Assembly: GCA_025999215.1 (NCBI GenBank)
Contig: AP024679.1
Coordinates: 433,082 to 497,081, forward strand
Source of the DNA: Candidatus Dojkabacteria bacterium
GTDB lineage: Bacteria > Patescibacteriota > Dojkabacteria > J137
DNA: 64,000 nucleotides
Direction: 5' to 3'
The notes beneath the pieces were generated by a model that saw nothing but the letters and a program-made list of their open reading frames with translations, was not told the DNA's origin and did no database searches. How positions within the stretch are numbered: the first letter of the stretch is position 1; each line of letters begins with the position of its first letter. The position numbers and the translations under genes were made by a program. Shown here piece after piece: positions 1,600 through 32,282 of the stretch.

Positions 1600-1833
1600 T
1601 TAATTTTTCTTTTTAATTCCTAATAATTCTTTCACTCTTTTTTGTTCTGGTTTTGATAATTCTAATTTATCCTTATCAACTCTTCTTTTTGAACTTCTTT
1701 TATTCTTTTTGTGGGCATTATTTTTTAATCTTTGAACTACCCTTGTTACTACTCCAGAACCAGTAACTTTAAATCTTTTGGCTGTAGATTTATGCACTTT
1801 CTTTTTAATTTTAGTTTTTTTAGCTTTACTCAT
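1600..1833 (-). CDS. rpmI: 50S ribosomal protein L35
   Basis: 77 aa, lysine-rich, with KSTAKRFKVTGSG. Overlaps the infC stop by 4 nt. Confidence 0.9.
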   Translation of the reverse strand: MSKAKKTKIKKKVHKSTAKRFKVTGSGVVTRVVQRLKNNAHKKNKRSSKRRVDKDKLELSKPEQKRVKELLGIKKKN

Positions 1834-2390
1834 GATTTTTTCTTAACATTAATTACTAAATTATATCCTTCTTTTCGCACTTCCGATATTTCTTCAACCT
1901 TATCTTTCATCATTTCTCTAAGTCTTTCCATTGTAGCATACATTTGCTCTCTTGGCACTCTTCTAGTAGATTTAATTGTTAATTTAGCTGTATTACCTTT
2001 TGATACAAATTCAATAACCCTTTTTAGTTTGTTTTCCATGTCGTTATCTGCAATGTTAGGTTTGAACCACCACTCTTTATTTTTGACTTGGTGACCTTTA
2101 GCATTTTTAGCTTTTTTGGTTTGCTCGTACTTAAATTTTGACCAGTCTATGATTTTAGCTACAGGCGGATCAATATCTGGCGATACAAGAACCAAGTCTA
2201 AACCAACCTCTCTTGCTTTTGCTAAAGCTTCTGCTTTTGAAAGTACACCTAGATTTTCACCATTTTGATCTATTACTCTCATTTTCTCGGCACGAATATG
2301 ATTATTTCTATCGTACCATTTTATTTGAATAGATTTTTTCTTTGGCGATTTTCTAACTCTCCTGATCTTTTTACACTTAAAAATTAACAA
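1830..2390 (-). CDS. infC: Translation initiation factor IF-3
   Basis: IRAEKMRVIDQNGENLGVL and GLDLVLVSPDIDPPVAKIIDWSKFKYE match IF-3. The ORF-track start is TTG; the true start is often non-AUG in infC and is uncertain here. Confidence 0.9.
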   Translation of the reverse strand: MLIFKCKKIRRVRKSPKKKSIQIKWYDRNNHIRAEKMRVIDQNGENLGVLSKAEALAKAREVGLDLVLVSPDIDPPVAKIIDWSKFKYEQTKKAKNAKGHQVKNKEWWFKPNIADNDMENKLKRVIEFVSKGNTAKLTIKSTRRVPREQMYATMERLREMMKDKVEEISEVRKEGYNLVINVKKKS

Positions 2391-2429
2391 TGATATACTA
2401 ACATATTTTTAAAATATTGACAATGGATT

Positions 2430-3980
2430 TTACCCTATTTTTAGGTTTTCACTCAAAAAAGATGTTAAGTTTTCATAATCCATTAATCCAACCTCCCTAC
2501 CTTCAAACCTCACAGAAACTGAATTGTTTGTAACCTCTTTGTTACCAATCACAAGTATGACAGGAATTTTTCTTTCTTCAGCATTTCTGATTTTATTTTG
2601 TATACTTTTAGATCTTAAATCTACTTCCACATTATATCCTTGTTTTGCAATTTTTTTACTAAAATTGCTGGCGAATTCATTTTGTTTAGATTTTATTGGT
2701 ATACAAATAATATGAGTTTCTTTAATTGTAGTTGGTAAATTTCCATTGTTTTCTTCGAGTAAGTAAGCAATGATTCTTAGAGGTACCACTTCAATCTCAG
2801 TTACAAAAAGATTTTTATTTTCATTTTTCTCATCTACATAAGTAGGTGTATTTTGTGTGAAAGTTCTTAAGGATGCCAGTTGCCACTTTCTATCAAAAGA
2901 ATCTAGCACAAAAAATACAGTTTCCACGACACCATTAGTTTTGGTAAGCACTTGGTTGTGAGACACAACATTACTTTTCAAAACACTAGAAATGACTTTA
3001 ACTTTACCATCATCTAAATTATCACTTAAAATGTCGGCAGACACATCAATTAGAAGTTTTTTCCTGAATATATCAACAATTTCTTCTATTTGAATTCCCA
3101 ATTCACTCATTCCTTCCGTATCGGTGAACATCGAAATAATTGTTTGTACTAAAGTTTCAATTTTTTCTTTTTTAATTTCAAAAAAATTGGTTGAGTCGTA
3201 ATTAAAAATTAAAGGAAATTCTTTGTAACCATGATTTTTAGATTTGTAATTTTCGAATAGAATTTTTCTAAATTCGTAATTATTTTTTCCTTGAGGAAAG
3301 AGTGTTTGGTTTAAAATGTTATCTTTCAAGCTTCTCAAAAATAATTTTTTGAGACTCTTTATTGAATTTGCACCAAGAGGTGAAAAGTATATTGAGTTTT
3401 CGTATTCAAAAAATAAATTAGATGATAAGCCTATTGTTTTGTAGTTTTTGTTTTTGACAATTTCTAGCTTTTTTTTATAATCTTGTGCCTCATTAAGATT
3501 TCGAAATACCATTCCATAGACTCTTTGCAATTCTGGTCTGTTAGGATCATCTCTCCAAAAAGATTGCTCTACTTTGTTTACTACAATTATCCCAATTTCT
3601 TCAGTTGATGATACATGCGGTCCTCTGCACAAATCTGTAAATTCTTCTCCTAGTTTGTAAAAGCTTACTTCAGGCTCATCAATTTGTTTAACTAATTCTG
3701 CTTTGTAAATCTGGCCGTTTTGAAGTAAAAAATTCAAAGCGCTATCTTTATCGAGTGTTATTTGTGTAAATTTATGATTTTCTTTAATTATTTCGTTAGC
3801 AACTGCTTCAATATTTTTTAAATCTTCTTCTGTAATTTTTTTATCAATATCGATATCGTAATAAAATCCTTCACTGGTTACTGGTCCTATTCCAAATTTT
3901 ACTTCAGGAAAAACTCTTTTTATTGCTGCCGCCATAACGTGAGCCGCAGAGTGTTTGACTGTATCAGAAATTTTGGTCAT
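2430..3980 (-). CDS. thrS: Threonyl-tRNA synthetase homolog without a TGS domain; editing and anticodon-binding signatures present, class II catalytic motifs not recognisable
   Basis: HSAAHVMAAAIKRVFP, GIGPVTSEGFYYDID and DLCRGPHV match the ThrRS editing domain. The C-terminal IPVILVIGNKEVTNNSVSVR matches the anticodon-binding fold. It sits upstream of infC-rpmI-rplT. The core region could not be aligned to motif 2/3 or the Zn ligands (see findings). Confidence 0.75.
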   Translation of the reverse strand: MTKISDTVKHSAAHVMAAAIKRVFPEVKFGIGPVTSEGFYYDIDIDKKITEEDLKNIEAVANEIIKENHKFTQITLDKDSALNFLLQNGQIYKAELVKQIDEPEVSFYKLGEEFTDLCRGPHVSSTEEIGIIVVNKVEQSFWRDDPNRPELQRVYGMVFRNLNEAQDYKKKLEIVKNKNYKTIGLSSNLFFEYENSIYFSPLGANSIKSLKKLFLRSLKDNILNQTLFPQGKNNYEFRKILFENYKSKNHGYKEFPLIFNYDSTNFFEIKKEKIETLVQTIISMFTDTEGMSELGIQIEEIVDIFRKKLLIDVSADILSDNLDDGKVKVISSVLKSNVVSHNQVLTKTNGVVETVFFVLDSFDRKWQLASLRTFTQNTPTYVDEKNENKNLFVTEIEVVPLRIIAYLLEENNGNLPTTIKETHIICIPIKSKQNEFASNFSKKIAKQGYNVEVDLRSKSIQNKIRNAEERKIPVILVIGNKEVTNNSVSVRFEGREVGLMDYENLTSFLSENLKIG

Positions 3981-4022
3981 AACATTTTCTCTATCTTAGA
4001 GAAATATAAAATTTAATACACA

Positions 4023-4096
4023 TGAGCACTACAGGATTCGAACCTGTGACCTTTCCCACGTCAAGGGAACGCTCTAACCAGCTGAGCTAAGTGCTC
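4023..4096 (-). tRNA. tRNA-Val (anticodon GAC), no encoded CCA
   Basis: The reverse complement reads GAGCACT TA GCTCAGCTGGTTAGAGC G TTCCC TTGACGT GGGAA AGGTC ACAGGTTCGAATCCTGT AGTGCTC A. This gives a full cloverleaf with anticodon loop TTGACGT. Confidence 0.9.
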
Positions 4097-4689
4097 TTTT
4101 GCACCTTCTTTTTTTCTATTACGCTGTCGATAATTCCATATTCTACTGCCTGTAGAGCTGTCATGTGATAGTCTCTGTCAATATCTTTTAATACTTTTTC
4201 TTTCTTCTGCCCAGTTGATTCCACTAACATATCTACCAATTTATCTTTGAGCCTTAAAATTTCTTTAGCTGTAATTTCAATGTCTGATGCTTGACCTTCA
4301 ACTCCTCCTAGTGGTTGATGAATTAAAATCAAACTGTTTGGCAAAGCAAACCTTTTGCCTTTTGTGCCTTGAGACAAAATCATAGCTCCCATTGAAGCAG
4401 CTTTACCTACCGCAATGGTAACAATATCAGGTTTTATATAATTCATTGTGTCAATTATTGAAAGACCGTCATATACAGAACCTCCAGGACTATTGATGTA
4501 CATGGTTATATCTTTTTTAGGATCTTCTTTTTCTAAAAAGAGAAGTTGAGCAATCACTGCATTTGCAACCCCCTCATCAATCGCCGTGCCCAAAAAAATT
4601 ATTCTATCTTTGAGTAGTCTAGAATAAAGATCATAAGCTCTTTCTCCATCTCTGGTTCTTTCAATTACGTTTGGTATTAAATATGCCAT
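4087..4689 (-). CDS. clpP: ATP-dependent Clp protease proteolytic subunit
   Basis: [34 protein letters not shown] and [11 protein letters not shown] (catalytic Ser context) are typical ClpP. The last codons and the TAG stop lie inside the tRNA-Val gene. Confidence 0.95.
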
Positions 4690-4764
4690 TTATTTTTTTT
4701 AATAACTACTTAATCATTATAGTAGTAATTATTTTAATTTTCAACAGAACCGATTAGCTTATCA

Positions 4765-4806
4765 GGTAAAAAACAAAAATCCCCGTTGGGATTTTTGTTT
4801 TTTACC
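4765..4806 (-). terminator. Long perfect hairpin between the DUF192 gene and the clpP promoter region
   Basis: ggtaaaaaacaaaaatccc (4765-4783) and gggatttttgttttttacc (4788-4806) form a 19-bp stem with a 4-nt loop. The flanks are A/T-rich on both strands. Confidence 0.5.
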
Positions 4807-4926
4807 TCGTTTGTTGGAATATTATACACATTTTCAAATTTGTTTGTCAAAGGGGTTTATACAAAGTGTTTTAATTTCTTTATGTTAAAGCTTAAAAGCA
4901 CTTGAAATTTTGTATACAATTTTTAA

Positions 4927-5463
4927 TCACCATATAAATCTATCACCTATTTTAATTCCATTCTTTTCTGTCCAAAAAGCATTTACTTCAAGTGTGTATT
5001 TTGCCGGTTTTTCTGATGAGTAAATTTCTGTAGTTTGGTTTGGCATGGTGTTAGTGTGAATTTTAACAACTTTTTTATCTGCATCTAAAAATATAATATC
5101 TAGTGGAATATAAGTATTTTTCATCCAAAAGTTTAGAGTTTGTTCTTTTTCAAACACAAAAAGCATGCCAGCATCTTCAGGTAGATAATCTCTAAACATC
5201 AAACCTCGCTGCCTTTCTGTGTTATCATCAGCTATTTCTACAAAAATTTTTTTACCGTTCGGTGCGATTATTTCAATATTTTCTGAAGGTATTGCGTTTA
5301 ATTGAATGTCTTGATTTGCTTCGTTGTTATTTAAAAAGTTTTCACCTACACCTAACGCGATTAAAACAGCAAAAAAAACAGAAATTACTGTAGCAATAGC
5401 GCTAATTAAAAGTATAATCGGAGATTTGAGGTTTTGTAAAATTTTGTTTTTAATATTATTCAT
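4927..5463 (-). CDS. DUF192-family protein with N-terminal membrane anchor
   Basis: RQRGLMFRDYLPEDAGMLFVF...FWMKNTYIPLDIIFLD is the DUF192 signature. The start overlaps the mutL stop by 1 nt (TAATG). Confidence 0.8.
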   Translation of the reverse strand: MNNIKNKILQNLKSPIILLISAIATVISVFFAVLIALGVGENFLNNNEANQDIQLNAIPSENIEIIAPNGKKIFVEIADDNTERQRGLMFRDYLPEDAGMLFVFEKEQTLNFWMKNTYIPLDIIFLDADKKVVKIHTNTMPNQTTEIYSSEKPAKYTLEVNAFWTEKNGIKIGDRFIW

Positions 5464-7301
5464 TAAATTATTCGTTTAAAAAATTTATCTATATCTTCTT
5501 TCGTTAGTTTGTAGTAAGTTGGTCGTCCATGTGGGCAATTTTTGGGGTATTTAAGGCTAAACAAATCGTTAATGAGCTTATTCATTTCGTCTATAGATAA
5601 TTTTTGTCCAGCTCTAATTGATCCGTGGCATGCTGTTTTTGCCCAAACTACATACTGTTCTTGTGTTAATTTTACACTAGTTTCAAACTCGTAACTACTA
5701 AATTTTGAATCAAGATCATCTGATTCTTCGTTTATTATCTCATCAAAGAATTCGTTTAAATTTATATTTTCTAAGTCTTCAGGGATTTCCATAATTTGTA
5801 AGGATTTTTGTCCAAATCTTTCAAATTTAAATCCTATCTGAATTAAATCATTTTCAATCTTTTTAATATTATCTTTACCGCTAGTAGTTAACTCGACAAT
5901 TGCGGGAATTAATAGAGGTTTTGATTTAGGTTTTTGAATTTTTCGTAGCAATTTTTCAAAAATGATTTTTTCGTGAGCTGCATGCTGATCAACTATAATT
6001 AAGTTTGAATTTTGTTCAAACAGTATGTATGTTCCAAAAATTTGCATAGGGTTTTTGTTCCATGAAAAGGAAATCTCAACTTCATTTTTGCTACTATTAA
6101 TTCCTTCATCTGATAATAATTGCTGAGTAAATTCAAGTGCTTTTTTGACTTCATAATTTTTGTTTCTTTGGCTTCCGATATTAAATTTAATTTTATTACT
6201 CTGCTCTGTTTTTTGTAAGGGTAAGTAATGCCTTGGTGGATTAGTAGTTTTTAAATCTGGTTCATTTGAAAAGTTATTTTCTTCTCCTAAAAAATCTTTG
6301 AGTAATTCTTGCTTGGACTCTTTCTCAAGTGTTTTTTTGACGCTCAGAAAAACAGACTTGAAAATGGAACCTGGATCATCAAAACGAACTTCAAGCTTTC
6401 GTGGGTGCACATTAACATCAACTTGATTTGAATCAAGTGTTAAAAACAAAATATATTGTGGCTTTAAATCTTTATGCAAGAAACCTGAGTATGCTTTTTG
6501 GATTGCTGATGAAATAGTTTTGTTAGTTACAAATCTTTTGTTGATAAAAATATATTGAACTGGATTTGTTTTTTTTCCAAGTTTTGAATTACCCAAAAAA
6601 CCATTTAATTTGATTGAATTACTGTGAGCAGTTAAGTTATATGAGTTTTCTAAAAATTCTCTACCTAAAATATCTTTTATTCTGTTCTCAATTGAAGTTT
6701 TTTCTAGATTATAAAGTTGTTTATTATTGTGGTAAAGCTCAAAATGTATTTCAGGATTTGCAAGAGATGCATGAATGAAAACTTGGATAATGTGTCTAAG
6801 TTCAGTTTGATTAGATTTTAGAAATTTTTTTCTTGCAGGAACTGTAGCAAATAAATTAAAAACTTGAATTCTTGTGCCGTTATTGTAACCTTCTGGAGAA
6901 GCTTCTGAGATGGTTGTTGGGGTTACCACCACCGCTTTTGGGTTACTATCGGGTGTTTTAGATTGTAAAATAATCTTTTCAGCAACTGAACGAATGCTAG
7001 CCATTGCTTCACCTCTAAAACCAAATGAATTAATTTTAAGTAGGTCAGAAGATTTTTTAATTTTAGAAGTTGCGTGTTGTTCAAACACTAAATCAATATC
7101 ATCACTCTCTATTCCTATTCCATCATCAATAATTTCAATCAAATCTAGCCCATAGTTTTCAATATAAACTTTAATATGAGTTGCATTGGCATCAATGCTA
7201 TTTTCTAAAATTTCCTTAACTACGGACGCTGGTCTTTCAACAACTTCACCGGCAGCAATAAGGTTTATTACATGTGGAGGTAGTTTGTTAATTTTTCCCA
7301 T
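5463..7301 (-). CDS. mutL: DNA mismatch repair protein MutL (endonuclease-type)
   Basis: N-terminal GHKL ATPase (LIAAGEVVERPASVVKEILENSIDA). The C-terminal domain carries DQHAAHEKIIFE (DQHAxxExxxxE) and CPHGRP motifs. Confidence 0.95.
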   Translation of the reverse strand: MGKINKLPPHVINLIAAGEVVERPASVVKEILENSIDANATHIKVYIENYGLDLIEIIDDGIGIESDDIDLVFEQHATSKIKKSSDLLKINSFGFRGEAMASIRSVAEKIILQSKTPDSNPKAVVVTPTTISEASPEGYNNGTRIQVFNLFATVPARKKFLKSNQTELRHIIQVFIHASLANPEIHFELYHNNKQLYNLEKTSIENRIKDILGREFLENSYNLTAHSNSIKLNGFLGNSKLGKKTNPVQYIFINKRFVTNKTISSAIQKAYSGFLHKDLKPQYILFLTLDSNQVDVNVHPRKLEVRFDDPGSIFKSVFLSVKKTLEKESKQELLKDFLGEENNFSNEPDLKTTNPPRHYLPLQKTEQSNKIKFNIGSQRNKNYEVKKALEFTQQLLSDEGINSSKNEVEISFSWNKNPMQIFGTYILFEQNSNLIIVDQHAAHEKIIFEKLLRKIQKPKSKPLLIPAIVELTTSGKDNIKKIENDLIQIGFKFERFGQKSLQIMEIPEDLENINLNEFFDEIINEESDDLDSKFSSYEFETSVKLTQEQYVVWAKTACHGSIRAGQKLSIDEMNKLINDLFSLKYPKNCPHGRPTYYKLTKEDIDKFFKRII

Positions 7302-7328
7302 AAAAATTTAAAACTTTTACAAATCTCT

Positions 7329-8417
7329 TTATTTAAATTCGCCAAGTAAAAATATTTCTAATTTAAGATTTAATCCTAACTTTTCTAATGCTCTTTTTTT
7401 TATCTCTTCTATCACTGCTAAGTATTCTTGCGCTGTAGCTTTACCTTTGTTTTCAATAAAATTATGGTGTTTTTCTGATATCCAAGCATCACCAATGTGG
7501 AACCCTTTCATATTTAAAACATGTTCTACCACATACCCAACACTTACCGTAGGCCAACCTCTTTTCTCTTTTTCTTTTACGCTTATATTTTGAAAAACAC
7601 AACCTATTGAATTACTTGGTTGATGCAACGCTTTTCTCTTGGTCCACTCTTGAGCTACGTAAATGGCTCTTTTTTTATCACCTTTTCTTAAATTAAAAGT
7701 AGCATCTAAAATTATTTCTTTTGTATCATGAAAAATTGAATAATCATATTTTGCCTTAAGTTCATTTTGTTTATATATCTTAATTTGATTTTTTGAATCC
7801 AGCACCTTTACTTCATCAATTATCTCATGAATAAAATGAGTACCACCATGAATGTTATTAAAAATTGCACCACCGATAGTTCCAGGAATTCTTCCATACC
7901 ATTGTAAACCAGTTAATCCTTGATATACTAAATGATTGATCGCAAATGGTAAATCTACACCACTTTCCATAACTACTTTTACTATAGGTCTGTCATTTTC
8001 ATCGTAATCTAAATCTTGAAATTCATACATTTTCCTTGCGCCCTCTTTTTCTGTTGCGCTATTCCATCTAATTTCAGATTTATATGATTTTTCCCATTGG
8101 TTTATTAAATTTTCATTGTTTTCACTTTTTTCAACTATTTCTTTTTGACCTATAGTAATTTTTTTAGCTTGATTTCGTATAACTAACCCTCTGATTCCTA
8201 AATCACCCACCAAAACATTTGAACCCCAACCAAGCATTGTGATTGGTACGTTTTCTTTTCGAGCGTGAATTATTGCATCTATTAATTCTTCATTAGTTCG
8301 TGGTTCGTAAAAAATATCCGCAGGTCCACCAATTCTTAAAGTTGTATGTTTACTCAATGGTTCATTAAGCTTTATAAATTTTGGGTTTAATTTTGAAATT
8401 AGTTTCTGATATTTCAT
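7329..8417 (-). CDS. murB: UDP-N-acetylenolpyruvoylglucosamine reductase
   Basis: LSKHTTLRIGGPADIFYEP, GWGSNVLV and the GCVFQN-type C-terminal region match MurB. There is an acidic insertion of about 60 aa in the middle. Confidence 0.9.
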   Translation of the reverse strand: MKYQKLISKLNPKFIKLNEPLSKHTTLRIGGPADIFYEPRTNEELIDAIIHARKENVPITMLGWGSNVLVGDLGIRGLVIRNQAKKITIGQKEIVEKSENNENLINQWEKSYKSEIRWNSATEKEGARKMYEFQDLDYDENDRPIVKVVMESGVDLPFAINHLVYQGLTGLQWYGRIPGTIGGAIFNNIHGGTHFIHEIIDEVKVLDSKNQIKIYKQNELKAKYDYSIFHDTKEIILDATFNLRKGDKKRAIYVAQEWTKRKALHQPSNSIGCVFQNISVKEKEKRGWPTVSVGYVVEHVLNMKGFHIGDAWISEKHHNFIENKGKATAQEYLAVIEEIKKRALEKLGLNLKLEIFLLGEFK

Positions 8418-8420
8418 AAT

Positions 8421-9707
8421 CTATTTAACTTTTTCTATTTGTGCTCCAAGTGTTAAATAAGTTTCAACTAATTCAGGATAACGTCTGCTCAATTGATCTG
8501 TTTCGTCAATTAAGGTTGAAACGCCACTTGCACCAAGTGCCGCTACAAATAAAGCTTTGGCTGAAGCGATAATATTCGGAGCTTTGATTACTGTACCTTC
8601 TAATTTGCTTGGCCCAAAAGTTATCACTCTGTGAGGATCTGCCATTACAACATTTGCTTTAAGTTTTGCTAGCTCTTCTATGAAGTAAAAGCCGTACTCG
8701 TAAAATGAATTATGAAATATTAAACTTCCCTCTGCAAAACATGCAGCGACTACTAGTGATTGTATAGCATCAGGAGGAAATTGTGGCCAATGTAGCGCCA
8801 TAATTTGAAATAAATCTCCTCTAACAGTTTTGTGAGCTTTTAATTTTTGATTTTTAGGAATTATAAGTTTATCTCCTTCGTAGTAAGAGTTAAGATTTAT
8901 TTTTTCAAAGGCAGATCTAATATTTGTCATGTGTTCTGGAATTGCGTTATTTATAGTGAGCTCGCTTCCAGTGACAGCAGCTATTGCCATATATTCTGCG
9001 ATATCTAAATGATCACTTATCACATTCCACTCTGTTCCCTTAAGTTTATCTACACCATTTATCACTAATTTGTTAGAGCCAATGCCTTTAATTTTAGCTC
9101 CCATGCTAACCAACATGTTACATAAATCTTGAGTGTGAGGTTCACAAGCAGCATTGTAAATTTCTGTAACTCCAGGCGTTAGTACAGCCAAATTAATTAA
9201 ATTTTCTGTTCCTGTAACACTTGGAAACCAAGACCAAACTTTTGCGCCTTTTAATTTTTTTGCCTCTAAAAAATAACCTTTTTCTCTTCTGTAAACAGCA
9301 CCAAGTTGCACCATATTATCAATAAAAGCATCCAGTGGCCTTGAACCTAATTTACACCCCCCCGGTATAGGCATTTCAGCTTTTCCAAATCGATGAAGAA
9401 GTGGCGCCATAAACATTACAGAAGCCTTTGCTTTTTGGGATAAATCCTCATCGATTTTATAAGTATTAATACCTTTAGCTACTATTTTCACAGATGTTCC
9501 ATTGTTAAAATACGTAACCTTACCGCCGAGAGTTTTTACAATTTTAAGCATTATTCTTACATCAGAACTTTTAGGAACATTGTGTATGATTACTGGTTCA
9601 TCAGTCAATAAACTAGCTGGAATTAATTTTAAAATTGAATTTTTATTTGGAACTGGAGTAACCTCACCATTTAGTTCTATGCCTCCTTGAATTTTATATA
9701 CAGCCAT
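8421..9707 (-). CDS. murA: UDP-N-acetylglucosamine 1-carboxyvinyltransferase
   Basis: YKIQGGIELNGEV, the PGGCKLGSRPLD active-site Cys loop, and full length of 428 aa. Confidence 0.95.
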   Translation of the reverse strand: MAVYKIQGGIELNGEVTPVPNKNSILKLIPASLLTDEPVIIHNVPKSSDVRIMLKIVKTLGGKVTYFNNGTSVKIVAKGINTYKIDEDLSQKAKASVMFMAPLLHRFGKAEMPIPGGCKLGSRPLDAFIDNMVQLGAVYRREKGYFLEAKKLKGAKVWSWFPSVTGTENLINLAVLTPGVTEIYNAACEPHTQDLCNMLVSMGAKIKGIGSNKLVINGVDKLKGTEWNVISDHLDIAEYMAIAAVTGSELTINNAIPEHMTNIRSAFEKINLNSYYEGDKLIIPKNQKLKAHKTVRGDLFQIMALHWPQFPPDAIQSLVVAACFAEGSLIFHNSFYEYGFYFIEELAKLKANVVMADPHRVITFGPSKLEGTVIKAPNIIASAKALFVAALGASGVSTLIDETDQLSRRYPELVETYLTLGAQIEKVK

Positions 9708-9912
9708 TGATTAAATTTAAAATATTTTAATAATTATACCTTAAAATTAAAAATTACTCTAAAATTTCGAAAGGGGTAGTTAGATAATAACGTTAAAGTA
9801 TTTAGTATTCTAAAATTAAGAAAACCATTTTGCAGTTTTGGCTTTCTATGAGGATAACCAGGCCAGCAGCAAGGTCTATTTGCGCTTGTTGATTTTTTTT
9901 CTAAAATCAATA
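9672..9912. repeat. Direct repeat copy 1 (murA 5' end + promoter region + 3' remnant of a ydeI-like gene)
   Basis: The 146-bp core 9681-9826 matches 12179-12324 with about five substitutions counted by eye. More diverged homology continues to about 9912. The offset to copy 2 is 2498 bp in the same orientation. Confidence 0.85.
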
Positions 9913-10088
9913 AAAGATACAAAAATACACTCATCTTGTTTGGATGATTTTCACTTCCATGTAAGAGGTTTTATAAATATAGTTTAAATTATCTTTTTTC
10001 TGTATACTTTCCAGATTGTATTGTTCAGTAGATAGTATTTCAAACTTAAATTTCCATAATTGTCATTTTCTAACTTCTGTCAATAAGT

Positions 10089-12113
10089 TTAATCAGGAAC
10101 TTTTTGTAGTAAAAATTCTCTACAGTAAATCCTGGGTGGTTTAGACCAATCTATTTCACCATCAGGTTTGCGCTCATGTAAAATAAAACATCCATATCCA
10201 TATTGCCTTAACCCTATTCTACTGATCACGATCACATTATTTTTTAATTTTAATAGTTCTTTAACATATTTGTGATGCTTACGGGTTGCGTACATATTTT
10301 CATATATTCCATACTTTATACCAAAGTTACATGTGTACACACTAACATGTTTGCCATCCTCACATGCTTTGACATTTAGAATGGGTTCAACTGGTACATA
10401 CTTGAATCCTGCCCTTTTCCAATTATCTACTGCTTGATATACTCTTAACCAAGAAATAAATTCTTCATTTGATATGACTCTTCTATTACTTTTGTTGTCT
10501 AGCTCTTCAGTAATAATTGGGGGCTTTTTCTCTGCTTTTGATATTTCTTTTATTTCTGATTTTTCAAGGTTTTCTATTAGTTTTAATACATCTTTTTCGA
10601 TTGGTTTTCTATTTTTTTCTGGCAGATACTCAAAATTCCAAGCAAACCCAGGCGCAGCTTCTTTTGGTGCCATATCAATAAGTAGTCTAGCTACCTGTAA
10701 TTGATTCCCTTCATGTAAAGATGGGAGTCTAAAAGCGACCTCGTAAGCGGTTCCTTTTGGGTTTACACCCATAAGTAACTTAATGACTGCTAATTGATTT
10801 TTTTCTGACAAGTCCCGAAGTTGCCAAGCCACATTGCGAAGAAATTCGTCATTAATTGCTTTGGGAGCTTTTTCTATAAGTGAAGTAATAATTTCTATTT
10901 GAGTATCTTCTGGTAAACATGCTAAATGGCCAGCGAGGTTCTCAGCAGACTCTTGAGGTGCTTTTTCAACAAGTAGTTTAGCAATATCTCCCCTAATATC
11001 TTCAGATATATCATCAATTTTGTCAGATAACGGGCCTGCCGTTGGATTTATATATTCATCCTTATGTAACATGTACAAAATTTCATTTTTGATTTCTTGG
11101 GGTAATTCTTCAAATTCGCAAATTTCCCGAGCAAGTTCAGGTGCCGCTTCTTTTGGTGCTATATCGAGCAGTAAATTAAAGATATGTATCATTTGCTTTT
11201 CAGAAATAAACTCGCCGACATAAAAAAGTTTTTTAGCAAGTTCAGGTGCAGCTTCTTTTGGTGCTTTCTCTAGAATTAATTTTAATATTTCCATTTGAGC
11301 TTTTTCTGGTAAATATATGGCCTGATTTGCAAGCCCTGGTGCAGCTTCTTTAGGAGCTTTTTCTATAAGCTTTTTTGCGAAGTCTGCTCTAACTTCTTCT
11401 GGAAGGTCATTAATACCCCAGGCAAGTTTAGGTGCAGCTTCTTTTGGTGCTATATCGAGAAGCTTGTTTGCAAAGTCTACTCTTGTTTCTTTTGGAAGAT
11501 AAGAAACACTCCAGGCAATTTCAGGTACCGCTTTTTTGAGGGCTACATCAAACAGTAAATTAACAATTTGTTTTCTATTTTCGTATGGAAAAGATTCTAT
11601 GGAGCTAGCGATTACTGGAGCCGCTTCTTTGGGGGCATTCTCTAGGAACCAAGGTAATGCTTCTCTTTTAACCTCTGATGGGAGGTACTTAAAATTTTCA
11701 TATTCAGCTATTGCAGAAGTCACTTTTTTTAAATTTTTCTCCTTTATATGTTTTAAGAGCATTTTACAGATTTTTGTAAAAACTGCTGGTTCAAGAAGGC
11801 GATACAAATCTGAAATAAAGTTAGCAAGTTTAACCCCAGCTTCCTCTGGAGCGATATCTAAAATCTCTTGGGTTTTTTCGAAATAATCTCCTTGTTGACT
11901 ACATAGTGATAACATCGCATCAGTTATTTTAAAGTTTATTGGATCATTTTCGATAATGTTCTGGTATTGCCTTTCTAAATTTTCAACTATTTTTTGAAAC
12001 TCATCCTGGGACCATTTAGGTGCACCTGGCAAATGATACATTTCATAGTTTGCTATCATGTTGCGTGCCGTTTCACTTAAACTTGAATTAATTGAGGAAG
12101 TATTTTGTGACAT
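10089..12113 (-). CDS. 674-aa tandem-repeat (alpha-solenoid/HEAT-like) protein with unassigned C-terminal domain
   Basis: About a dozen units of roughly 31-36 aa of the form L(I/L)(E/D)xAPKEAAPxLAxxxxxLPEExxxxxxxxL. The only gene lying between the two direct repeats. Confidence 0.7.
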   Translation of the reverse strand: MSQNTSSINSSLSETARNMIANYEMYHLPGAPKWSQDEFQKIVENLERQYQNIIENDPINFKITDAMLSLCSQQGDYFEKTQEILDIAPEEAGVKLANFISDLYRLLEPAVFTKICKMLLKHIKEKNLKKVTSAIAEYENFKYLPSEVKREALPWFLENAPKEAAPVIASSIESFPYENRKQIVNLLFDVALKKAVPEIAWSVSYLPKETRVDFANKLLDIAPKEAAPKLAWGINDLPEEVRADFAKKLIEKAPKEAAPGLANQAIYLPEKAQMEILKLILEKAPKEAAPELAKKLFYVGEFISEKQMIHIFNLLLDIAPKEAAPELAREICEFEELPQEIKNEILYMLHKDEYINPTAGPLSDKIDDISEDIRGDIAKLLVEKAPQESAENLAGHLACLPEDTQIEIITSLIEKAPKAINDEFLRNVAWQLRDLSEKNQLAVIKLLMGVNPKGTAYEVAFRLPSLHEGNQLQVARLLIDMAPKEAAPGFAWNFEYLPEKNRKPIEKDVLKLIENLEKSEIKEISKAEKKPPIITEELDNKSNRRVISNEEFISWLRVYQAVDNWKRAGFKYVPVEPILNVKACEDGKHVSVYTCNFGIKYGIYENMYATRKHHKYVKELLKLKNNVIVISRIGLRQYGYGCFILHERKPDGEIDWSKPPRIYCREFLLQKVPD
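10640..11860 (-). repeat. In-frame coding tandem repeats (about 93-105 bp period) inside the 674-aa gene
   Basis: The recurrent DNA motif ggtgc(a/c)gcttcttttggtgc (reverse complement of APKEAAP codons) occurs near 10655, 11145, 11240, 11335 and 11430, with degenerate copies elsewhere. Confidence 0.8.
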
Positions 12114-12165
12114 ATTTTGATAAAGATAAAATAAAAATTTTGGTTATTCTACAACATACTCAATG

Positions 12166-12408
12166 CATCTAACTCTACGCCTCCTTTAATTTTGTATACA
12201 GCAATTGATTAAATTTAAAATATTTTAATAATTATACCTTAAAATTTAAAATTACTCTAAAATTTTGAAAGGGGTAGTTAGATAATAACGTTAAAGTATT
12301 TAGTATTCTAAAATTAAGAAAACCTTTTTTTCATTTTGGATTTCTGTGAGAACAACTAGGCCAGCAATAAGATGTTTTTGCACCTGTAGATATTTCTTTT
12401 TCTAAAAG
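12166..12408. repeat. Direct repeat copy 2 (dead murA 5' remnant + promoter copy + ydeI-like 3' end)
   Basis: Contains ATT GCT GTA TAC AAA ATT AAA GGA GGC GTA GAG, versus murA ATG GCT GTA TAT AAA ATT CAA GGA GGC ATA GAA. The upstream block is the same as in copy 1. Confidence 0.85.
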
Positions 12409-12591
12409 GTTTAAACGTTTATTTCTAGTAGTTCCTTTTTAGCAGCGCTTAACCAACATATCCATTCATTGCGAGCTAATTGTGTGAGTTTACCCCAGAC
12501 ATCATTTTAAATAGTATTTTTTGAGCATATTATCAAGATCAAGCGGCACTGCATGAAAATAGTTTTGTATACTTTTATAATTTTTATTCAT
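12331..12591 (-). pseudogene. Small YdeI/OmpD-associated-like gene with two frame disruptions
   Basis: Three frame segments: MNKNYKSIQNYFHAVPLDLDNMLKKYYLK* / NDVWGKLTQLARNEWICWLSAAKKE.. / TTRNKRLNLLEKEISTGAKTSYCWPSCSHRNPK*. The ARNEWI.W...AKK.ETR.KR and CCWP-type tail recall the YdeI C-terminal domain (from memory). Confidence 0.5.
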
Positions 12592-12708
12592 TATTTTTTA
12601 ATTAGGGAAGTTCTAATAATTTAAGAAGCGGTTTTTATTTTTTGGAAAAATACAATTACCTGAAAAGATATCTAAAAAAAGCAAATAAAAAAAACTAATT
12701 TTTAATCT

Positions 12709-12784
12709 TGGTGCCGAGGGGCGGACTCGAACCGCCGACACCACGATTTTCAGTCGTGTGCTCTACCAACTGAGCTACCTCAGC
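12709..12784 (-). tRNA. tRNA-Phe (anticodon GAA), CCA encoded
   Basis: The reverse complement reads GCTGAGG TA GCTCAGTTGGTAGAGC A CACGA CTGAAAA TCGTG GTGTC GGCGGTTCGAGTCCGCC CCTCGGC A CCA (76 nt). Confidence 0.95.
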
Positions 12785-12917
12785 ACTACGCTTGATTATA
12801 CACCGTTTTTTTCAACTTTGCGAATTTTTTTTTGTTTGTATTAAAAATTGTTTAGAATTATAGTAATTTTTTTTAAAGTGTTGTACAATTAATTAGTTTA
12901 CATTTTAATTGAAATTT

Positions 12918-13739
12918 ATGGAAGAATCAAAAACTACTTCAAACCAAGATATGAAGACTGAAAAAGTTAAATCAAATGGAAAAAGTAAGGTCTGGTTGAT
13001 TGCAGGTTTGTTATTTGTGATTTTTTTATGTTGTTGTTTGTGTGTGGGAGTTTTGGGTTATATGTTGTTTCAATCTGAAGATTTTAAAGAGGGATATTGT
13101 GAATCACTAGAAGAGGATGATGCATTGGATAATGATTTGTTAGGTTTGTGTGATGATTGGGAACCATCTTACGAAAAAGAAGATACCAAGGTTAGTTCAA
13201 ATGACAGCGATAAAAAAGCTGACGTTGTAGACAACAATACAGACACTAAAAAAGATGAATCTAACGACAAGAAGCAAAATAATGATAGTGCTTATGTTAT
13301 TTATGATGGTTATTACTTTTCATTCGAATATCCAAGATATTGGAAACAAAGCACATCTTCTACAGATTGGTCAACAGTTGAGTTTACATCTGAAGAAGGA
13401 GTTGTAATTAGTTTAAAATCAATTTATGATAATGAGTATTCAAAGAATTTGTCAGGTTGTAGTGAATATGAAGAGTCAATTTTTAGTGGTTTGACTAGTG
13501 TGTATGATAATGTTGAGTCTGAATCTGTTTTATTTACAACTACGGAGAATGGATATGCCGCTTGTTATTTAAAAGGTTATCTTGTTGATGGACCTATTAC
13601 TACAGTTTTAGAGCAATATTTAGTATTTGATCCTTTGATTGATACTTTTGCTTTAGAATTTGGAATTAAATACGATTCTAGAGATTCTGGCATGGGTAGT
13701 TACTTGCAACATGCTGTTGATACATTAACGTTTGAATAA
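12918..13739 (+). CDS. Hypothetical membrane-anchored protein (N-terminal TM, acidic linker, C-terminal globular domain)
   Basis: Intact ORF. An ATG at 12918 is preferred over the TTG at 12909. TM segment VWLIAGLLFVIFLCCCLCVGVLGYMLF. No family recognised. Confidence 0.6.
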   Translation: MEESKTTSNQDMKTEKVKSNGKSKVWLIAGLLFVIFLCCCLCVGVLGYMLFQSEDFKEGYCESLEEDDALDNDLLGLCDDWEPSYEKEDTKVSSNDSDKKADVVDNNTDTKKDESNDKKQNNDSAYVIYDGYYFSFEYPRYWKQSTSSTDWSTVEFTSEEGVVISLKSIYDNEYSKNLSGCSEYEESIFSGLTSVYDNVESESVLFTTTENGYAACYLKGYLVDGPITTVLEQYLVFDPLIDTFALEFGIKYDSRDSGMGSYLQHAVDTLTFE

Positions 13740-13818
13740 ATTTTAAAAAGCAAGAAATATAACTGAACCTAACATATTGATTTAATTTAAAAGTGTTGTT
13801 ACAATTTGTTGTTTGCTT

Positions 13819-13895
13819 GGGCGCCTAGCTCAACTGGCTAGAGCATCCCGTTTACACCGGGAAGGTTATAGGTTCGAGTCCTATGGCGCCCACCA
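13819..13895 (+). tRNA. tRNA-Val (anticodon TAC), CCA encoded
   Basis: GGGCGCC TA GCTCAACTGGCTAGAGC A TCCCG TTTACAC CGGGA AGGTT ATAGGTTCGAGTCCTAT GGCGCCC A CCA (77 nt). Confidence 0.95.
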
Positions 13896-14019: not shown

Positions 14020-14682
14020 GTGAGTAATGAAAAAATTAAACAAAAGGCAAAAAAGGTTAATGCGTTGTTAAAAAAAGAATACCCTATAGTTAAAACTCCT
14101 TTGCACCACAAAAATGCCTGGGAACTTTTAATTGCAGTTATATTGTCAGCTCAAACTTTAGATGAAACGGTAAACAAAGTTACTCCAAGGCTTTTTAAGT
14201 TATACAATTCATGTTATGAATTAGCTGGGGCTAATTTGGCTGAAGTAGAAGAAGTTATAAAAGGCGTAAATTATTATAAAACCAAAGCCAAAAATATTAT
14301 CAAGACATCTCAAAAGCTAGTAGAAAATTTTGATGGTAAAGTACCAAATAAAATTGAAGAATTAACAACTCTTCCTGGTGTTGGTAGAAAAACTGCCAAT
14401 GTTATAATAAACGAGTGGTTTTGTAGGCATGATCAGAAAGTTTTACCTCAGGGATTTGTTGTTGATACTCATGTAGCTAGGGTTTCAAAGCGTTTAGGTT
14501 TTACTAAGCATTCTGATCCTACTTAAAATTGAGCAAGATTTAATGAATTTGTTTGATCAGATCTGATTGGCCTGAGTTGAGTTTGAGATTGATTTTTCAC
14601 GGGAGATATAGGTGTACCGCTCGTCAACATTTATGTTGTGAGCATGATAGATTGGAGTAAACTTTGTCAATGTTTATGTTAA
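14020..14682 (+). pseudogene. nth: Endonuclease III (Nth), frame-disrupted in its C-terminal third
   Basis: The HhH-GPD core is intact (LIAVILSAQTLDETVNKVT, LPGVGRKTANVI, VDTHVARVSKRLG) up to the stop at 14524-14526. The homologous sequence continues as KIEQDLMNLFDQ and then SDWPELSLRLIFHGRYRCTARQHLC in two other frames. The 4Fe-4S Cys spacing is not intact. Confidence 0.8.
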
Positions 14683-14686
14683 CATT

Positions 14687-15963
14687 ATGGAATTTAATTT
14701 AGTTTCTGAGTATAAACCTGCTGGTGATCAACCACGAGCGATTGATACGCTTTCTAATGGTTTGCTTGCTGGGAATCAAGCACCAAACGCTTGGTTGGTG
14801 CGACCGGAACTGGTAAAACTTTTACAATGGCAAATATCATACAAAATCTTGGGAAACCTGCTTTAATTCTTTCTCACAACAAAACTTTAGCTGCTCAATT
14901 GTTTGCTGAATTTAAAAAATTTTTTCCTTACAATGCTGTTGAGTATTTTGTGAGTTACTACGATTATTATCAGCCTGAGGCTTATGTTCCCTCAAGAGAT
15001 TTGTATATTGAGAAAGATGCCGATATAAACGACACAATTGAGCGGTACAGGTCTTCAGCTAGCCAGTCGCTTTTGACAAGAAAGGATGTGATTGTAATTT
15101 CAACCGTTAGTTGTATCTATGGGCTAGGGAATCCTGCAGATTATTTAGAATTAAGTTTTGAATTTAATGTTGGGGAAAGTTATAAACGCGATAATATTTT
15201 AGCGCGACTAACAGATATGCAGTATGAAAGAAACCAACTTGATTTCATGCCTGGGAGTTTTAGAGCCATTGGTGAGATTATTGATATTTATTTAACAAAT
15301 GCAAATGATGAAGCTGTAAGGTTAGAGTTTTTTGGTGATGAATTGGAATCTATAAAGATAATTAATCCTCTAACAGGCGAGTTTGTAAAAAATTTAAATT
15401 CAGTTATTATTTTTCCTGCCAAACACTATGTAAGTCCACATCATAAACTAATGGAAACGATTGAAACAATAAGAGAAGATATGAAAAAAGAAGTTCAGCA
15501 ATTTTTGGATAAAGGAAAGGTGGTGGAAGCAACGAGACTTAAGCAAAGGGTTGAATATGATTTGGAAATGATTGCTGAAACAGGTTTTGTAAAAGGCATT
15601 GAAAATTATTCTAGATACATTGACAGAAGACCACCCGGAAGTGCGCCATCATGTTTAATTGATTATTTTCCTCATGATTACATTATGTTTATTGATGAAT
15701 CACATATAACTGTTCCGCAAATTGGAGGAATGTACAATGGCGATCGCGCACGGAAACAGAGCTTGGTAGATTATGGTTTTAGGATGAAAGCAGCGCTAGA
15801 TAATCGACCTTTGAAATTTGAAGAATTTGAACAAAAATTAAACCAAGTTATTTACACCACGGCAACGCCAAGGGATTATGAAATTCAGAAAAGCATGAAT
15901 GCAACAGAAGAAATTAGGGAAAAAAGCCCTCAAATATTCAGTGGAAAAATGTTAGAATATTAG
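14687..15963 (+). pseudogene. uvrB: UvrB N-terminal half (about 425 codons) with two single-nt frame disruptions next to the Walker A motif
   Basis: MEFNLVSEYKPAGDQPRAIDTLSNGLLAGNQ (frame a), HQTL (frame c) and VGATGTGKTFTMANII (frame b). The extra bases are about 14780 and 14793. It ends ...TATPRDYEIQKS plus a 22-aa tail and TAG. The rest of UvrB is at 63780. Confidence 0.85.
15953..15958 (+). promoter_or_regulatory. Extended -10 (TGTTAGAAT) 6 nt upstream of the DUF368 ATG
   Basis: aaaTGtTAGAATattagaATG. Confidence 0.35.
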
Positions 15964-15964
15964 A

Positions 15965-16910
15965 ATGAAAATCAAGATTAGAAATATTTCACAAAAGGAA
16001 TGGTGATGGGTCTTGCTGAGGTTATCCCTGGAGTGAGTGGGTCAACCATGGCTTTGGTGATGGGTATTTATGATGATTTCATCAATCTACTCTACTCTTT
16101 TTCAAAGTTGGCGCAAAATTGTGTTGAGTTTTTGTTTCGAAAGAAAAGATTTTTTTGATCTTAAACAAGAGTTGACTGAACTATCTAGAATGGGGTTTTG
16201 CTATACCTTTGTTTTTCGGCATGATTGTGTCAATTTTATCTTTTGCCAATATTTTAAACTATTTCATTGATAAATCACCGGGTTACGTGCTTGCTTTTTT
16301 CTTTGGATTGGTGGTCGCATCGGTGTCAATTCCACTTCAGAGAGTTGGTAAGACCCAACATTTTGAAAGTTCTTTTGTTCTTGCTTCTCTCTTGCTTTTT
16401 TCTATTTTTTGCTTGGAGTTGATCCTATTGAGTTAAACGGTAAGCCAAATTTAGTTTATGTATTTTGTTGGGGGTATGCTTGCCATTTGCGCAATGAGTT
16501 TGCCTGGAATTAGCGGTTCTTTTATTTTGCTATTGTTGGGTTTGTATGAATACATTATTTCTATAATTAAAGATTTGTCTCATTTTAAGTTTAACTTCAG
16601 TGATTTTACTAGGTTGGTTGTTCTTTCTTTTGGTGTGGTGGCTGGATTTGTATTGTTTGTGAGAATACTAAAATGGTTGCTTTCAAAATACGAGGGCGAA
16701 TTGATGGCTTTTCTTGCAGGCTTGATGTTGGCATCGCTAAGAATTTTGTGGCCATTTATCGATAATTCACAGGAAGTTTCGAGAGTTTGGATGCTTATCC
16801 CAAGGTGATGTTAGAGTTAAGTAACACTGAACACCTTGTACACGGTTGCAATTATTGTAGCAAGTGCTGTAGCCGTCTTAGTAATCAAAAAGATTTCTGA
16901 TAAAATTTAA
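15965..16910 (+). pseudogene. DUF368-family membrane protein, fragmented by at least six frame disruptions
   Basis: GLAEVIPGVSGSTMALVMGIYD and AMSLPGISGSFILLLLGLYEY are the duplicated DUF368 signature. The homologous sequence hops between frames near 16000, 16140, 16196, 16400, 16460 and 16805. The C-terminal helix TLYTVAIIVASAVAVLVIKKISDKI ends at 16910. Confidence 0.7.
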
Positions 16911-16914
16911 GAGG

Positions 16915-18834
16915 TCACACCAAGGAAGCTTTGAGTCGCCTCAGGTTTGAGCCTATGTTTTCTTGTTTTAAAATTTTGAACTTTTTATTATTCTCTCCCA
17001 AAACTCCTGTTGTTTCAACATGCGGTCCTCCGCAAAACTCTTTTGAGAAACGCCTCATCTAAACTATTACCTATAAAATAAATGGTTACTTTGTCGGGAT
17101 ATTTTTGTCCAAACTCCATTTCTGCACCAATTTTTTGTGCTTCGCCTGAGAGGCATTTCTACTCTCTTCACTGGTAAATTTTCTGTGATCTTTTGATTGA
17201 CAATATCTTCAATTTTTTTGATTTCCTCTTCTGTAATTTTTTTTGAATAGTTAAAATCTATTCTTAATCTTTCAGAAGTTATGTTGCTACCTCTCTGGTG
17301 AATATTTTCGTCTAACACAAGCTGTAATGCTCTCAAAAGCAAGTGGTGAGCTGTGTGAAGCTTGGTTGTTTCGTGCGAGTGATCTGCCAAGCCTCCAGTA
17401 AATTTTTTTTGAGCGCCGGCACGAGATTGTTCTTTATGTTGTTCTAGCAACGTTTTAAAACCAACTATGTCTACTATAAATCCTATTTCTTTTGATAATT
17501 CTTGTGTCATTTCTACTGGAAATCCATAAGTTTCATAAAGATGGAAAGCTTCTTCACCTTTTAAGAAATTTCTATGAGGATTTTCGGATTTTTTGATATC
17601 AGTAACGATTTTGTAAAATTGCTTAATACCATTGTCTAGAGTTTTTCTAAATTTTATTTCTTCTTTATCTATTTCATCAATTATAAACATCTCCTTTTCT
17701 TTAAGATGAGGATAAGCATCTTTCATTTTTTCAATTACTAGGCTTGCCAAATCCTTGGTGAAATTTTTTTCTATTCCAAGAATTTTTGCATGTCTTATCA
17801 TCCTTCTGATTAAGCGCCTCAAAATATACCCTTGATCTTTGTTAGATGGCGCAATTCCATCGGCAAGAATAAAAGTTGATGCTCTTGCATGATCAGCTAT
17901 AATCCTGAATGCTTTCGTATATTTACTTCTGTTCTTCGTTGTGATCGTATTTGTGGCCTGATATATTTTCTATTGCGTTGATGTAGTCAATAAATAAATC
18001 AGTTTCGTAAACTGAGCGCTTGTTTTGAACTGTAGCGACAATTCTGTCTAGCCCTCCTCCATAATCAATGTTTTTTTGCTCCATAGGCTTCCATTTTCCA
18101 TCCTCAAATCTGTATTCCATAAAGACACTGTTTCCAATTTCTAAGTATCTTCCTGAATCATCATTAATGTGCAGTTTTTCTCCAGTATCATTTAATACTG
18201 TTTGCATATCATAAAAAATTTCTGAGCACGGTCCACCCAATTCTCCATTAACCTCGGGCCCTCTCTGCCACCAATTGTCTTTTTTACCATAAGGAAATAT
18301 TCTAAATTGCCAATTTTGACTTGATTCACCCTGTTGAGGAACATTTGTAATATCTTCACTAAATTTCGCTTCTATTCCATATTTTTTAAATGCCTTTATC
18401 CATGCGTCAATGGCTTCATCATCGCGAGGTATATTATCATCTCCTCCCCAGACGCTAGCAAAAATTCTTTGGGGATCAAGTCCGAACTTTTCTACATAAA
18501 GCTCCATTTTCCAAAGTATTTGTTCAGTTTTTGAAAAAGCGCCCAAAGACCAGTTACCGATCATTTCAAAAAAAGTTAAGTGATTGTAGTCGCCAACATC
18601 TTCAATATCATTTGTTCTTAGACATCTTTGTACATTACACAATCTTTTTCCCAAAGGATGAGGCTGTCCAGCTAGATATGGCACAAGTGGAAACATGCCT
18701 GAATTTACAAAAAGTAAAGTTGGATCATTATTTGGGACAAGGGATACATTCGGGATAATTTTTGCATTTCTTGGAGAACTTGTCCAAAATTTCAAAAATT
18801 CATTTCTTATTTCATCGGATGTTTTCATGAACAA
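16915..18834 (-). pseudogene. alaS: Alanyl-tRNA synthetase with three single-nt frame disruptions
   Basis: N-terminal catalytic part (FLKFWTSSPRNAKIIPNVSLVPNNDPTLLFVNSGM, FFEMIGNWSLG), middle part (AFRIIADHARASTFILADGIAPSNKDQGYILRRLIRR, HTAHHLL) and C-terminal part (GAEMEFGQKYPDKV, FSKEFCGGPHVETTG). The parts lie in successive +1 frames, with breaks near 17925, 17152 and 17050. Confidence 0.85.
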
Positions 18835-32270: not shown

Positions 32271-32282
32271 TGTTATAGTATT

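Follow-up and report, generated by a model that had tools for sequence, protein, structure and literature searches.

A single gene inserted between two copies of the murA promoter junction in a Candidatus Dojkabacteria genome

We analysed a 64-kb window of Candidatus Dojkabacteria DNA (the whole stretch under study; all coordinates are window positions), in which a gene coding for a 674-amino-acid (aa) protein lies between the essential gene murA and an OmdA/YdeI-like open reading frame (ORF). The evidence supports well that this 2.26-kb single-gene segment now sits between two copies of a ~240-bp murA-ydeI junction, as a real, fixed insertion-duplication scar. All genes from 5.4 to 12.8 kb are on the minus strand and, read in that direction, the order is tRNA-Phe, the OmdA/YdeI-like ORF, repeat copy 2, the 674-aa gene, repeat copy 1, murA, murB and mutL (Table 1). 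Copy 1 runs on into the functional murA, and copy 2 runs on into the YdeI-like ORF, directly upstream of the 674-aa gene. The murA 5' ends in copies 1 and 2 are referred to as a1 and a2, and the corresponding ydeI-like tails as T1 and T2.

The direct repeat was recovered with a repeat finder, which paired 9668-9900 with 12166-12398 (233 nt, 88% identical, spacing 2498), and with gapped local alignment, which widened it to 9668-9906 against 12166-12407 (239 and 242 nt, 89% identical). Inside the window, blastn gave 88.9% identity across 235 nt (E 1.6e-79), and a third copy was not found anywhere in the 64 kb. A preliminary description of this DNA had reported direct repeats of ~240 bp in the same orientation and 2498 bp apart, which the three methods uphold, and its account of what each copy contains (murA codons 1-13, a TATAAT-containing block and a ydeI-like tail, with a dead murA start in copy 2) proved accurate within a few bases.

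In copy 1 the murA start reads MAVYKIQGGIELN, a true start that continues into the intact gene. The equivalent stretch of copy 2 (ATT GCT GTA TAC AAA ATT AAA GGA GGC...) reads IAVYKIKGGVELD, with ATG changed to ATT, and its similarity to murA stops after codon 13, where Gly14 is replaced; this glycine of MurA is near-universal, being found in 50 of 52 relatives, and the other two read as stops. The TATAAT-containing upstream block is present in both copies. At the opposite end, the YdeI-like tails read ..CCWPGYPHRKPK in copy 1 and ..YCWPSCSHRNPK, followed by a stop, in copy 2. The last ~24 codons of T2 are in frame with the YdeI-like ORF and end at its stop codon; T1 (translation ..ILEKKSTSANRPCCWPGYPHRKPK) is an orphan of ~24 codons with one codon deleted, the stop lost and no ydeI sequence upstream of it. 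By codon comparison, the differences between T1 and T2 are mostly non-synonymous, in addition to the codon indel and the lost stop. As a result of this arrangement, the outer repeat halves continue into the complete murA and the YdeI-like ORF, and the inner halves are orphan fragments. Since the start of murA and the end of the ydeI-like gene occur together in each copy, the two genes must once have been adjacent with a single junction, and an ancestral ydeI-murA adjacency, with both genes on the minus strand and ~125 nt apart, the murA promoter and leader lying between them, is well supported by the make-up of the copies.

The limits of the repeat are sharp. No residual similarity was detected between the 182-nt inner flank and the rest of ydeI (score 20; shuffles 18.7 +/- 3.0), or between the 52-nt inner flank and murA beyond codon 13 (score 10; shuffles 11.1 +/- 1.9), which speaks for a single discrete event rather than for the decay of a large duplication. 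Between the copies there is only the 674-aa ORF, the remaining ORFs there being short antisense ORFs within it. No ORF for an integrase (tyrosine or serine recombinase) was found between or beside the repeats, the sole ORF of the insert has no Pfam match to a transposase, and no inverted repeat joins the insert ends; nor is there an att site derived from a tRNA. At ~240 bp, the repeat also lies outside the 2-15 bp of the short target-site duplications of transposons. That the 674-aa gene stands alone between the copies, and that integrase and transposase are absent, had both been stated before and agree with the ORF list, the Pfam searches and the inverted-repeat check. The structural reading offered at the time, an insertion bracketed by a duplicated junction, stands on the presence of both gene ends in each copy and on the sharp boundaries, and the repeat-bracketed insert is confirmed as a real feature.

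Independent support at the level of the reads was obtained from Logan, a k=31 unitig assembly of run DRR290133. A unitig of 2437 nt (L034) equals window 9797-12233 exactly, and it ends 30 nt (k-1) inside a 58-nt block (9769-9826) and a 43-nt block (12204-12246), both of them exact between the copies. These are the points at which the de Bruijn graph must branch, so both repeat alleles are present in the reads, and the inner junctions (T1-gene-a2, that is, the orphan tail, the gene and the dead murA start) are confirmed. Two more unitigs, 7260-9237 and 12756-13847, also match, and the three together (5.5 kb) show zero differences to the window. Exact-protein look-ups in Logan returned L034 for the inserted gene, L036 for murB with part of murA and L037 for a 273-aa gene, none of which spans the outer repeat joins. 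The two copies differ at 29 positions in ungapped register, unlike a collapsed or duplicated assembly artefact, and a misjoin is unlikely, since reads are longer than the exact blocks. An assembly artefact, which the preliminary description had named as a finding that would overturn its reading, is answered in part, L034 backing the inner junctions. As a separate observation, the unitig with murB and the 3' two-thirds of murA ends at 9237, beside a T8 run, which hints at strain polymorphism or length heterogeneity.

Divergence between the copies is uneven. The murA part of the repeat is identical at 33 of 40 positions (82.5%) and the ydeI tail at 43/56 to 50/67 (about 75-77%), while the intergenic core at 9706-9826 is identical at 119 of 121 (98.3%), in exact blocks of 43, 18 and 58 nt; the difference between core and flanks (119/121 vs 85/112) gave a Fisher p of 9e-8. 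A core of 146 bp with about five substitutions had been counted by eye, and the count holds, the mismatches within 9681-9826 falling at 9689, 9696, 9705, 9749 and 9768. Such uneven identity is a sign of crossover or gene conversion, or of selection on the promoter core, and the exact blocks are explained by homologous recombination or gene conversion as well as by the core of an attachment (att) site.

Within the core there is a -10-like GGTATAAT, 27 nt upstream of the murA ATG, as well as CGTTATTATCTA at -85, which is present in both copies (9777-9795 and 12275-12293) and shares an identical 12-mer with L043. In ~24 of 27 Dojkabacteria loci a YCGTTW(T) motif was observed 30-60 nt upstream of murA, and a -10-like hexamer usually precedes it by 12-17 nt; CGTTW lies upstream of just 8 of the 47 other window ORFs scanned. 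This motif may be a murA-specific leader or operator element, and the core, judging from these matches, contains authentic lineage-conserved murA regulatory sequence that has been kept in both copies. Conserved promoter elements perhaps explain about a third of the 121-nt core; the remaining identity needs recombination, in the form of the original crossover or heteroduplex tract or of continuing gene conversion between the copies. A consensus promoter scan returned 19 sites against 13.6 expected by chance and is uninformative in AT-rich DNA. A structured RNA or riboswitch in the core was considered and rejected (no Rfam match, fold z-scores of +0.5 and +0.2), as was a dispersed repeat element, since searches of the window and of IMG/VR gave no copy beyond the two described here.

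A single crossover is the best-established bacterial route to inserts flanked by direct repeats of a few hundred bp, and we regard Campbell-type integration of a junction-bearing circle as the best single mechanism for this locus, with a probability that we place slightly below even. In this scenario, a DNA circle bearing the 674-aa gene together with a homologous junction copy would integrate at the murA-ydeI junction through a single RecA-type (homologous) crossover within the intergenic core. The near-identity of the core would then come from the crossover or heteroduplex tract, from later gene conversion or from both, aided by selection on the promoter elements, and the orphaned coding ends would be donor-derived, drifted or both. 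Copy 1 would keep the promoter, leader and start codon for the essential murA, and copy 2 would provide the inserted gene, 92 nt ahead of its ATG, with the same promoter and leader. A non-duplicating insertion would sever murA from its promoter or truncate murA or ydeI, so an insertion that duplicates the region is what one would expect to survive. The differences between a1 and a2 are synonymous or fall at positions variable among orthologues, and in the orthologue alignment a2 keeps Y4, K5, I6, G8, G9 and L12, a pattern that is weakly suggestive of a once-functional donor murA.

Several points weigh against the single crossover. The functional-like pattern of a2 rests on tiny numbers, 7 differences in 40 nt, and a circle that joins the junction to its cargo needs a prior event. 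The 98% identity of the core calls for an extra assumption (heteroduplex segregation, conversion or selection), intergenic DNA normally diverging at least as much as coding DNA. The outer joins (a1-I-T1 and a2-I-T2) come from the primary assembly alone, and several housekeeping genes 2-7 kb away are fragmented, so local assembly quality is imperfect. The relatives searched, with MurA identities of 69% or less, yielded neither a donor nor a circle nor an empty site. The Campbell-type crossover put forward in the preliminary description is a candidate mechanism that fits the anatomy of the locus. A search of the literature on natural Campbell-type duplications found nothing directly relevant.

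For the comparison with related genomes, 33 loci from GTDB species genomes and 29 from JGI metagenomes were collected in scans anchored on MurA. The murA product is 45-69% identical to MurA at these 62 loci, with the nearest MurA at no more than 69% across GTDB species representatives and JGI metagenomes. No homologue of ydeI or of the inserted gene was detected upstream of murA at the scanned loci, even with tblastn at E < 10, and a second copy of the murA junction was found at 0 of 48 related loci. At no fewer than 22 related loci (at least), murA follows rsmH-ftsL-ftsI in a division/cell-wall cluster (e.g. L016 4883-7945); ftsI and rsmH are absent from the whole 64-kb window. Three loci (L008, L013 and L033) share the murA-murB-mutL order of the window, each with a different gene upstream of murA. 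As judged from these gene orders, the upstream boundary of murA is a recurrent synteny breakpoint in the clade, and the ydeI-murA adjacency implied by the repeat is itself lineage-specific. Direct ydeI-murA adjacency, which had been expected in relatives, was not seen; in most Dojkabacteria ftsI is directly upstream of murA.

The main rival is a one-step duplication-insertion in situ, which could produce the same anatomy in either of two ways: a break with long staggered ends is filled in around the inserted gene, as in a very long target-site duplication, or replication switches template from the junction to the inserted gene and then returns to a point 240 bp behind. All repeat halves would then be resident, the orphans would drift and the core would be conserved by conversion and selection. 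This explanation accommodates the sharp boundaries, the insert as a single segment and the host-like base composition of the inserted gene at third codon positions (GC3). Orphan divergence is similar on both sides (17.5% at the murA end and ~23% in the ydeI tail), fitting one age, and the non-synonymous changes, codon indel and lost stop of T1, together with the lost ATG of a2, look like neutral decay. Old repeats under gene conversion classically keep a highly identical centre and erode at the edges, which we also count in its favour. However, tblastn found no source copy of the inserted gene in the window, and at ~20% neutral divergence the exact blocks of 43 and 58 nt would long have been able to delete the insert. 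Target duplications of ~240 bp are also, to our knowledge, far outside the range of bacterial insertion mechanisms, and overall we consider duplication in situ somewhat unlikely. A larger tandem duplication, from the ydeI tail to murA, in which the 674-aa gene later replaced or deleted the upstream copy of murA, was the second option of the preliminary description and would be a common type of event with an identical-looking end product. It is nevertheless improbable, as it needs at least two events and as neither a trace of murA past codon 13 in the 52-nt flank, nor a trace of ydeI in the 182-nt flank, nor a second copy of the inserted gene in the window was found.

The exact 43- and 58-nt blocks amid diverged homology resemble what is seen at attL/attR, and the family of the inserted gene occurs in varied genomic contexts, both of which would suit an integrase-less mobilisable cassette whose recombinase is supplied in trans and whose element-borne gene ends restore both targets. 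We judge such a cassette very improbable, given that there is no integrase in or beside the unit, that the core and the C-terminal domain of the inserted gene's product are absent from IMG/VR and the inserted gene from plasmid and phage collections, and that neither a duplicated neighbour-gene end (0 of 3 homologue loci examined) nor a second junction copy (0 of the 48 murA loci) was observed elsewhere. Little credence at all can be given to an assembly artefact or a mixed population, in which the true site would be ydeI-junction-murA and the 2.5-kb unit a separate circle or part of another strain that was joined into the contig via the short exact repeats. The k-mer graph, with two paths in and two out at the 43- and 58-nt blocks, does fit either the integrated form or an empty site plus a circle, independent confirmation covers the inner junctions only, and nth, uvrB, the uptA-like gene and alaS are fragmented nearby. 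Yet the 29 differences give each copy its own alleles, the exact blocks are below ordinary read lengths and are thus spanned by reads, the three Logan unitigs match without a single difference, and the locus sits in an 862-kb contig. A genomic island at tRNA-Phe was also considered and set aside: on reading 9700-12700, no pattern search being run, no GC-rich stretch fitting a partial copy of tRNA-Phe was seen.

The product of the inserted gene consists of an N-terminal region, ~11 HEAT-like repeats of 31 aa (APKEAAP motif, 93-nt period) and a C-terminal kinase-like domain of ~155 aa, encoded at 10089-10571. An identical protein is encoded in a Candidatus Dojkabacteria metagenome-assembled genome with the locus-tag prefix KatS3mg085, on the 862-kb contig. 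Full-length homologues are rare, the two found (P0002 and P0003) being 36% and 34% identical over ~72% of its length. The C-terminal domain belongs to a family without a name, with 536 cluster representatives at E <= 1e-3, whose profile scores 241 bits on the 674-aa protein; in the 150 best-scoring representatives listed, which reach ~800 aa in length, the domain is C-terminal or nearly so. The 674-aa protein has no significant Pfam match, HEAT and HEAT_2 included; some relatives with the same C-terminal domain do match HEAT_2 (e.g. P0090, 46 bits against a cut-off of 27.7). The AlphaFold model of a family member (P0013; predicted local distance difference test, pLDDT, 84) matched 393 PDB chains at E <= 1e-3, those listed (50) all being domains of kinases or pseudokinases. 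The model of the 674-aa protein itself is poor (pLDDT 63), and its top matches are mostly kinases, none of them significant (best E 0.058).

In the family alignment, the near-invariant GTxTVLLGGT, ILRI, HGHxHxxNF and IDFD are replaced in the 674-aa protein by KPPIITEELD, NRRV, RQYGYGCF and REFL, and the core hydrophobic and structural residues of the kinase-like domain are retained; the protein is probably a non-catalytic, pseudokinase-like variant of the family. The GC3 of its gene is 0.24, like that of host genes. In a genome of 32% GC, ~7.6% of random codons are by our estimate expected to be stops, and an intact ORF of 674 codons has therefore been maintained by selection or arrived recently. 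No paralogue was found in the window by tblastn, the protein has no match in phage or plasmid collections, and the profile of its C-terminal domain has none in IMG/VR. Homologues occur in unrelated contexts (after rpsI, beside dut/smr and within a glycosyltransferase cluster), which indicates that the gene moves between sites. Duplicated neighbour-gene ends were absent from the three homologue loci examined, of which L035 is on a contig that ends 39 nt past the gene, L068 has no repeats and L067 has a hairpin element. This last, an unrelated metagenomic contig, carries three copies of the intergenic hairpin element (ACGTTGTACAA..TTGTACAACGT), at 3938-3969, 4668-4753 and 6143-6228. The element, of 60-86 nt, precedes both the homologue of the C-terminal domain and the small gene before it, with a tRNA-like sequence after, in a cassette-like spacing.

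Table 1. Features of the murA-ydeI locus in window coordinates
Feature	Position	Strand	Remarks
mutL	5463-7301	-	
murB	7329-8417	-	
murA, intact, 428 aa	8421-9707	-	Pfam EPSP_synthase E 1.3e-58, residues 7-415; Met1-aligned with 52 orthologues
Repeat copy 1 (J1)	9668-9906		murA codons 1-13 at 9668-9707; upstream region 9708-~9832; ydeI-like tail ~9836-9906
Near-identical repeat core	9706-9826		Partner at 12204-12324
Non-coding 3' flank of inserted gene, 182 nt	9907-10088		Unique in window
Inserted 674-aa gene	10089-12113	-	
Non-coding 5' flank of inserted gene, 52 nt	12114-12165		Unique in window
Repeat copy 2 (J2)	12166-12407		Dead murA start 12166-12205; upstream region 12206-12330; ydeI-like tail and stop 12331-12407
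OmdA/YdeI-like ORF, 86 codons	12331-12591	-	Two compensating 1-nt frameshifts
tRNA-Phe(GAA)	12709-12784	-	Rfam tRNA 71 bits; next gene upstream, outside the repeat

The frameshifts of the YdeI-like ORF, which like the uneven identity of the repeat had gone unmentioned in the preliminary description, lie in T/A runs at 12505-12508 and 12436-12440. As found, the ORF scores 23.8 bits on Pfam OmdA (PF13376), under the cut-off of 25.6; with the frames corrected, its 86 aa score 34.3 bits (E 2.3e-8). A homologue search with the YdeI-like protein yielded no candidate with sufficient word matches to the query. Further along, several housekeeping genes are fragmented at 14020-18834: nth stops at 168 aa, its remainder lying in another frame; uvrB, split at ~14785, ends after 390 aa; the gene for a VCA0040/UptA-like membrane protein (undecaprenyl-phosphate-translocase-like) is spread over three frames at 16000-16808; and alaS, an essential gene, is broken into three or more pieces at 16915-18834. 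Two exact-product look-ups for these genes in Logan found nothing. Either real decay or clustered indel errors of the assembly would account for the fragmentation from 14.0 to 18.9 kb, and since local indel errors are possible, the YdeI-like ORF is no more than a candidate pseudogene.

Elsewhere in the window, tandem paralogues at 31071-33497 (399 and 404 aa) have unrelated N-termini and ~98-aa C-termini that are 92% identical (..GGVWTAVGCIDPSPVG.., hydrophobic and membrane-anchor-like), which suggests that the two neighbours have recently exchanged a domain or undergone gene conversion. The repeat pair 31977-32271/33204-33498 was considered as a second insertion footprint and rejected, as it corresponds to the shared C-terminal domain of these paralogues. 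The cumulative GC skew has its minimum at ~12000-12900, where gene orientation shifts from all-minus (1830-12113) to mostly plus; despite both features, a replication origin near 12.8 kb found no support, no DnaA-box-like cluster being present.

The features of Campbell-type insertion-duplication by suicide and integrative plasmids are established, and the present locus shares with it an insert lying between direct repeats of a chromosomal segment of a few hundred bp, with no need of a recombinase of the element. When the plasmid-borne fragment spans a promoter and the 5' end of a gene, the downstream gene likewise remains intact with its promoter and the cargo comes to lie behind the truncated duplicate. 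In contrast to insertion-duplication mutagenesis, the case described here is natural, has no vector backbone or replicon, shows copies that are 11% diverged with a 98% core, and has no observed donor circle. The direct repeats of the locus, with exact blocks in the core and divergence on either side, resemble the attL/attR of temperate phages, integrative and conjugative elements, genomic islands and cis-mobilisable elements, which also have element-borne gene ends that keep the targets intact, as when phages and genomic islands restore tRNA 3' ends on integration. The locus differs from them in having no integrase, a single gene and, as target, the promoter junction of a protein gene rather than a tRNA 3' end, with tRNA-Phe outside the repeat; unlike integrative elements, it has no matches in the phage, plasmid and IMG/VR collections. 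Transposon target-site duplications also place direct repeats of target sequence around an insert, but they measure 2-15 bp compared with 239-242 bp here, and neither a transposase nor terminal inverted repeats are present. As regards the cargo, the 674-aa protein shares its architecture and C-terminal domain with the family that combines HEAT repeats with a C-terminal minimal kinase-like domain, and departs from it in the replaced near-invariant motifs.

Taken together, the locus is a fairly ordinary recombination scar of a known kind and no new kind of system. Patescibacteria (candidate phyla radiation, CPR) have small genomes with few recognisable mobile elements, yet single lineage-specific genes, which usually leave no sign of how they came in, interrupt their synteny; here, the footprint of a single-gene gain in a CPR genome has been preserved, upstream of an essential gene. 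It is also a clean natural example of promoter capture by insertion-duplication, in that murA keeps its promoter and the newcomer gets the same promoter and leader. A bolder version of the single-crossover reading, to which we assign only a slim chance, is that the 2498-bp unit is a minimal, recombinase-less 'gene circle' that would spread among Dojkabacteria strains by uptake, circularisation and single crossover at an essential-gene promoter that it duplicates and uses. If true, this would be a general route of single-gene acquisition in the streamlined, mobile-element-poor genomes of Patescibacteria.

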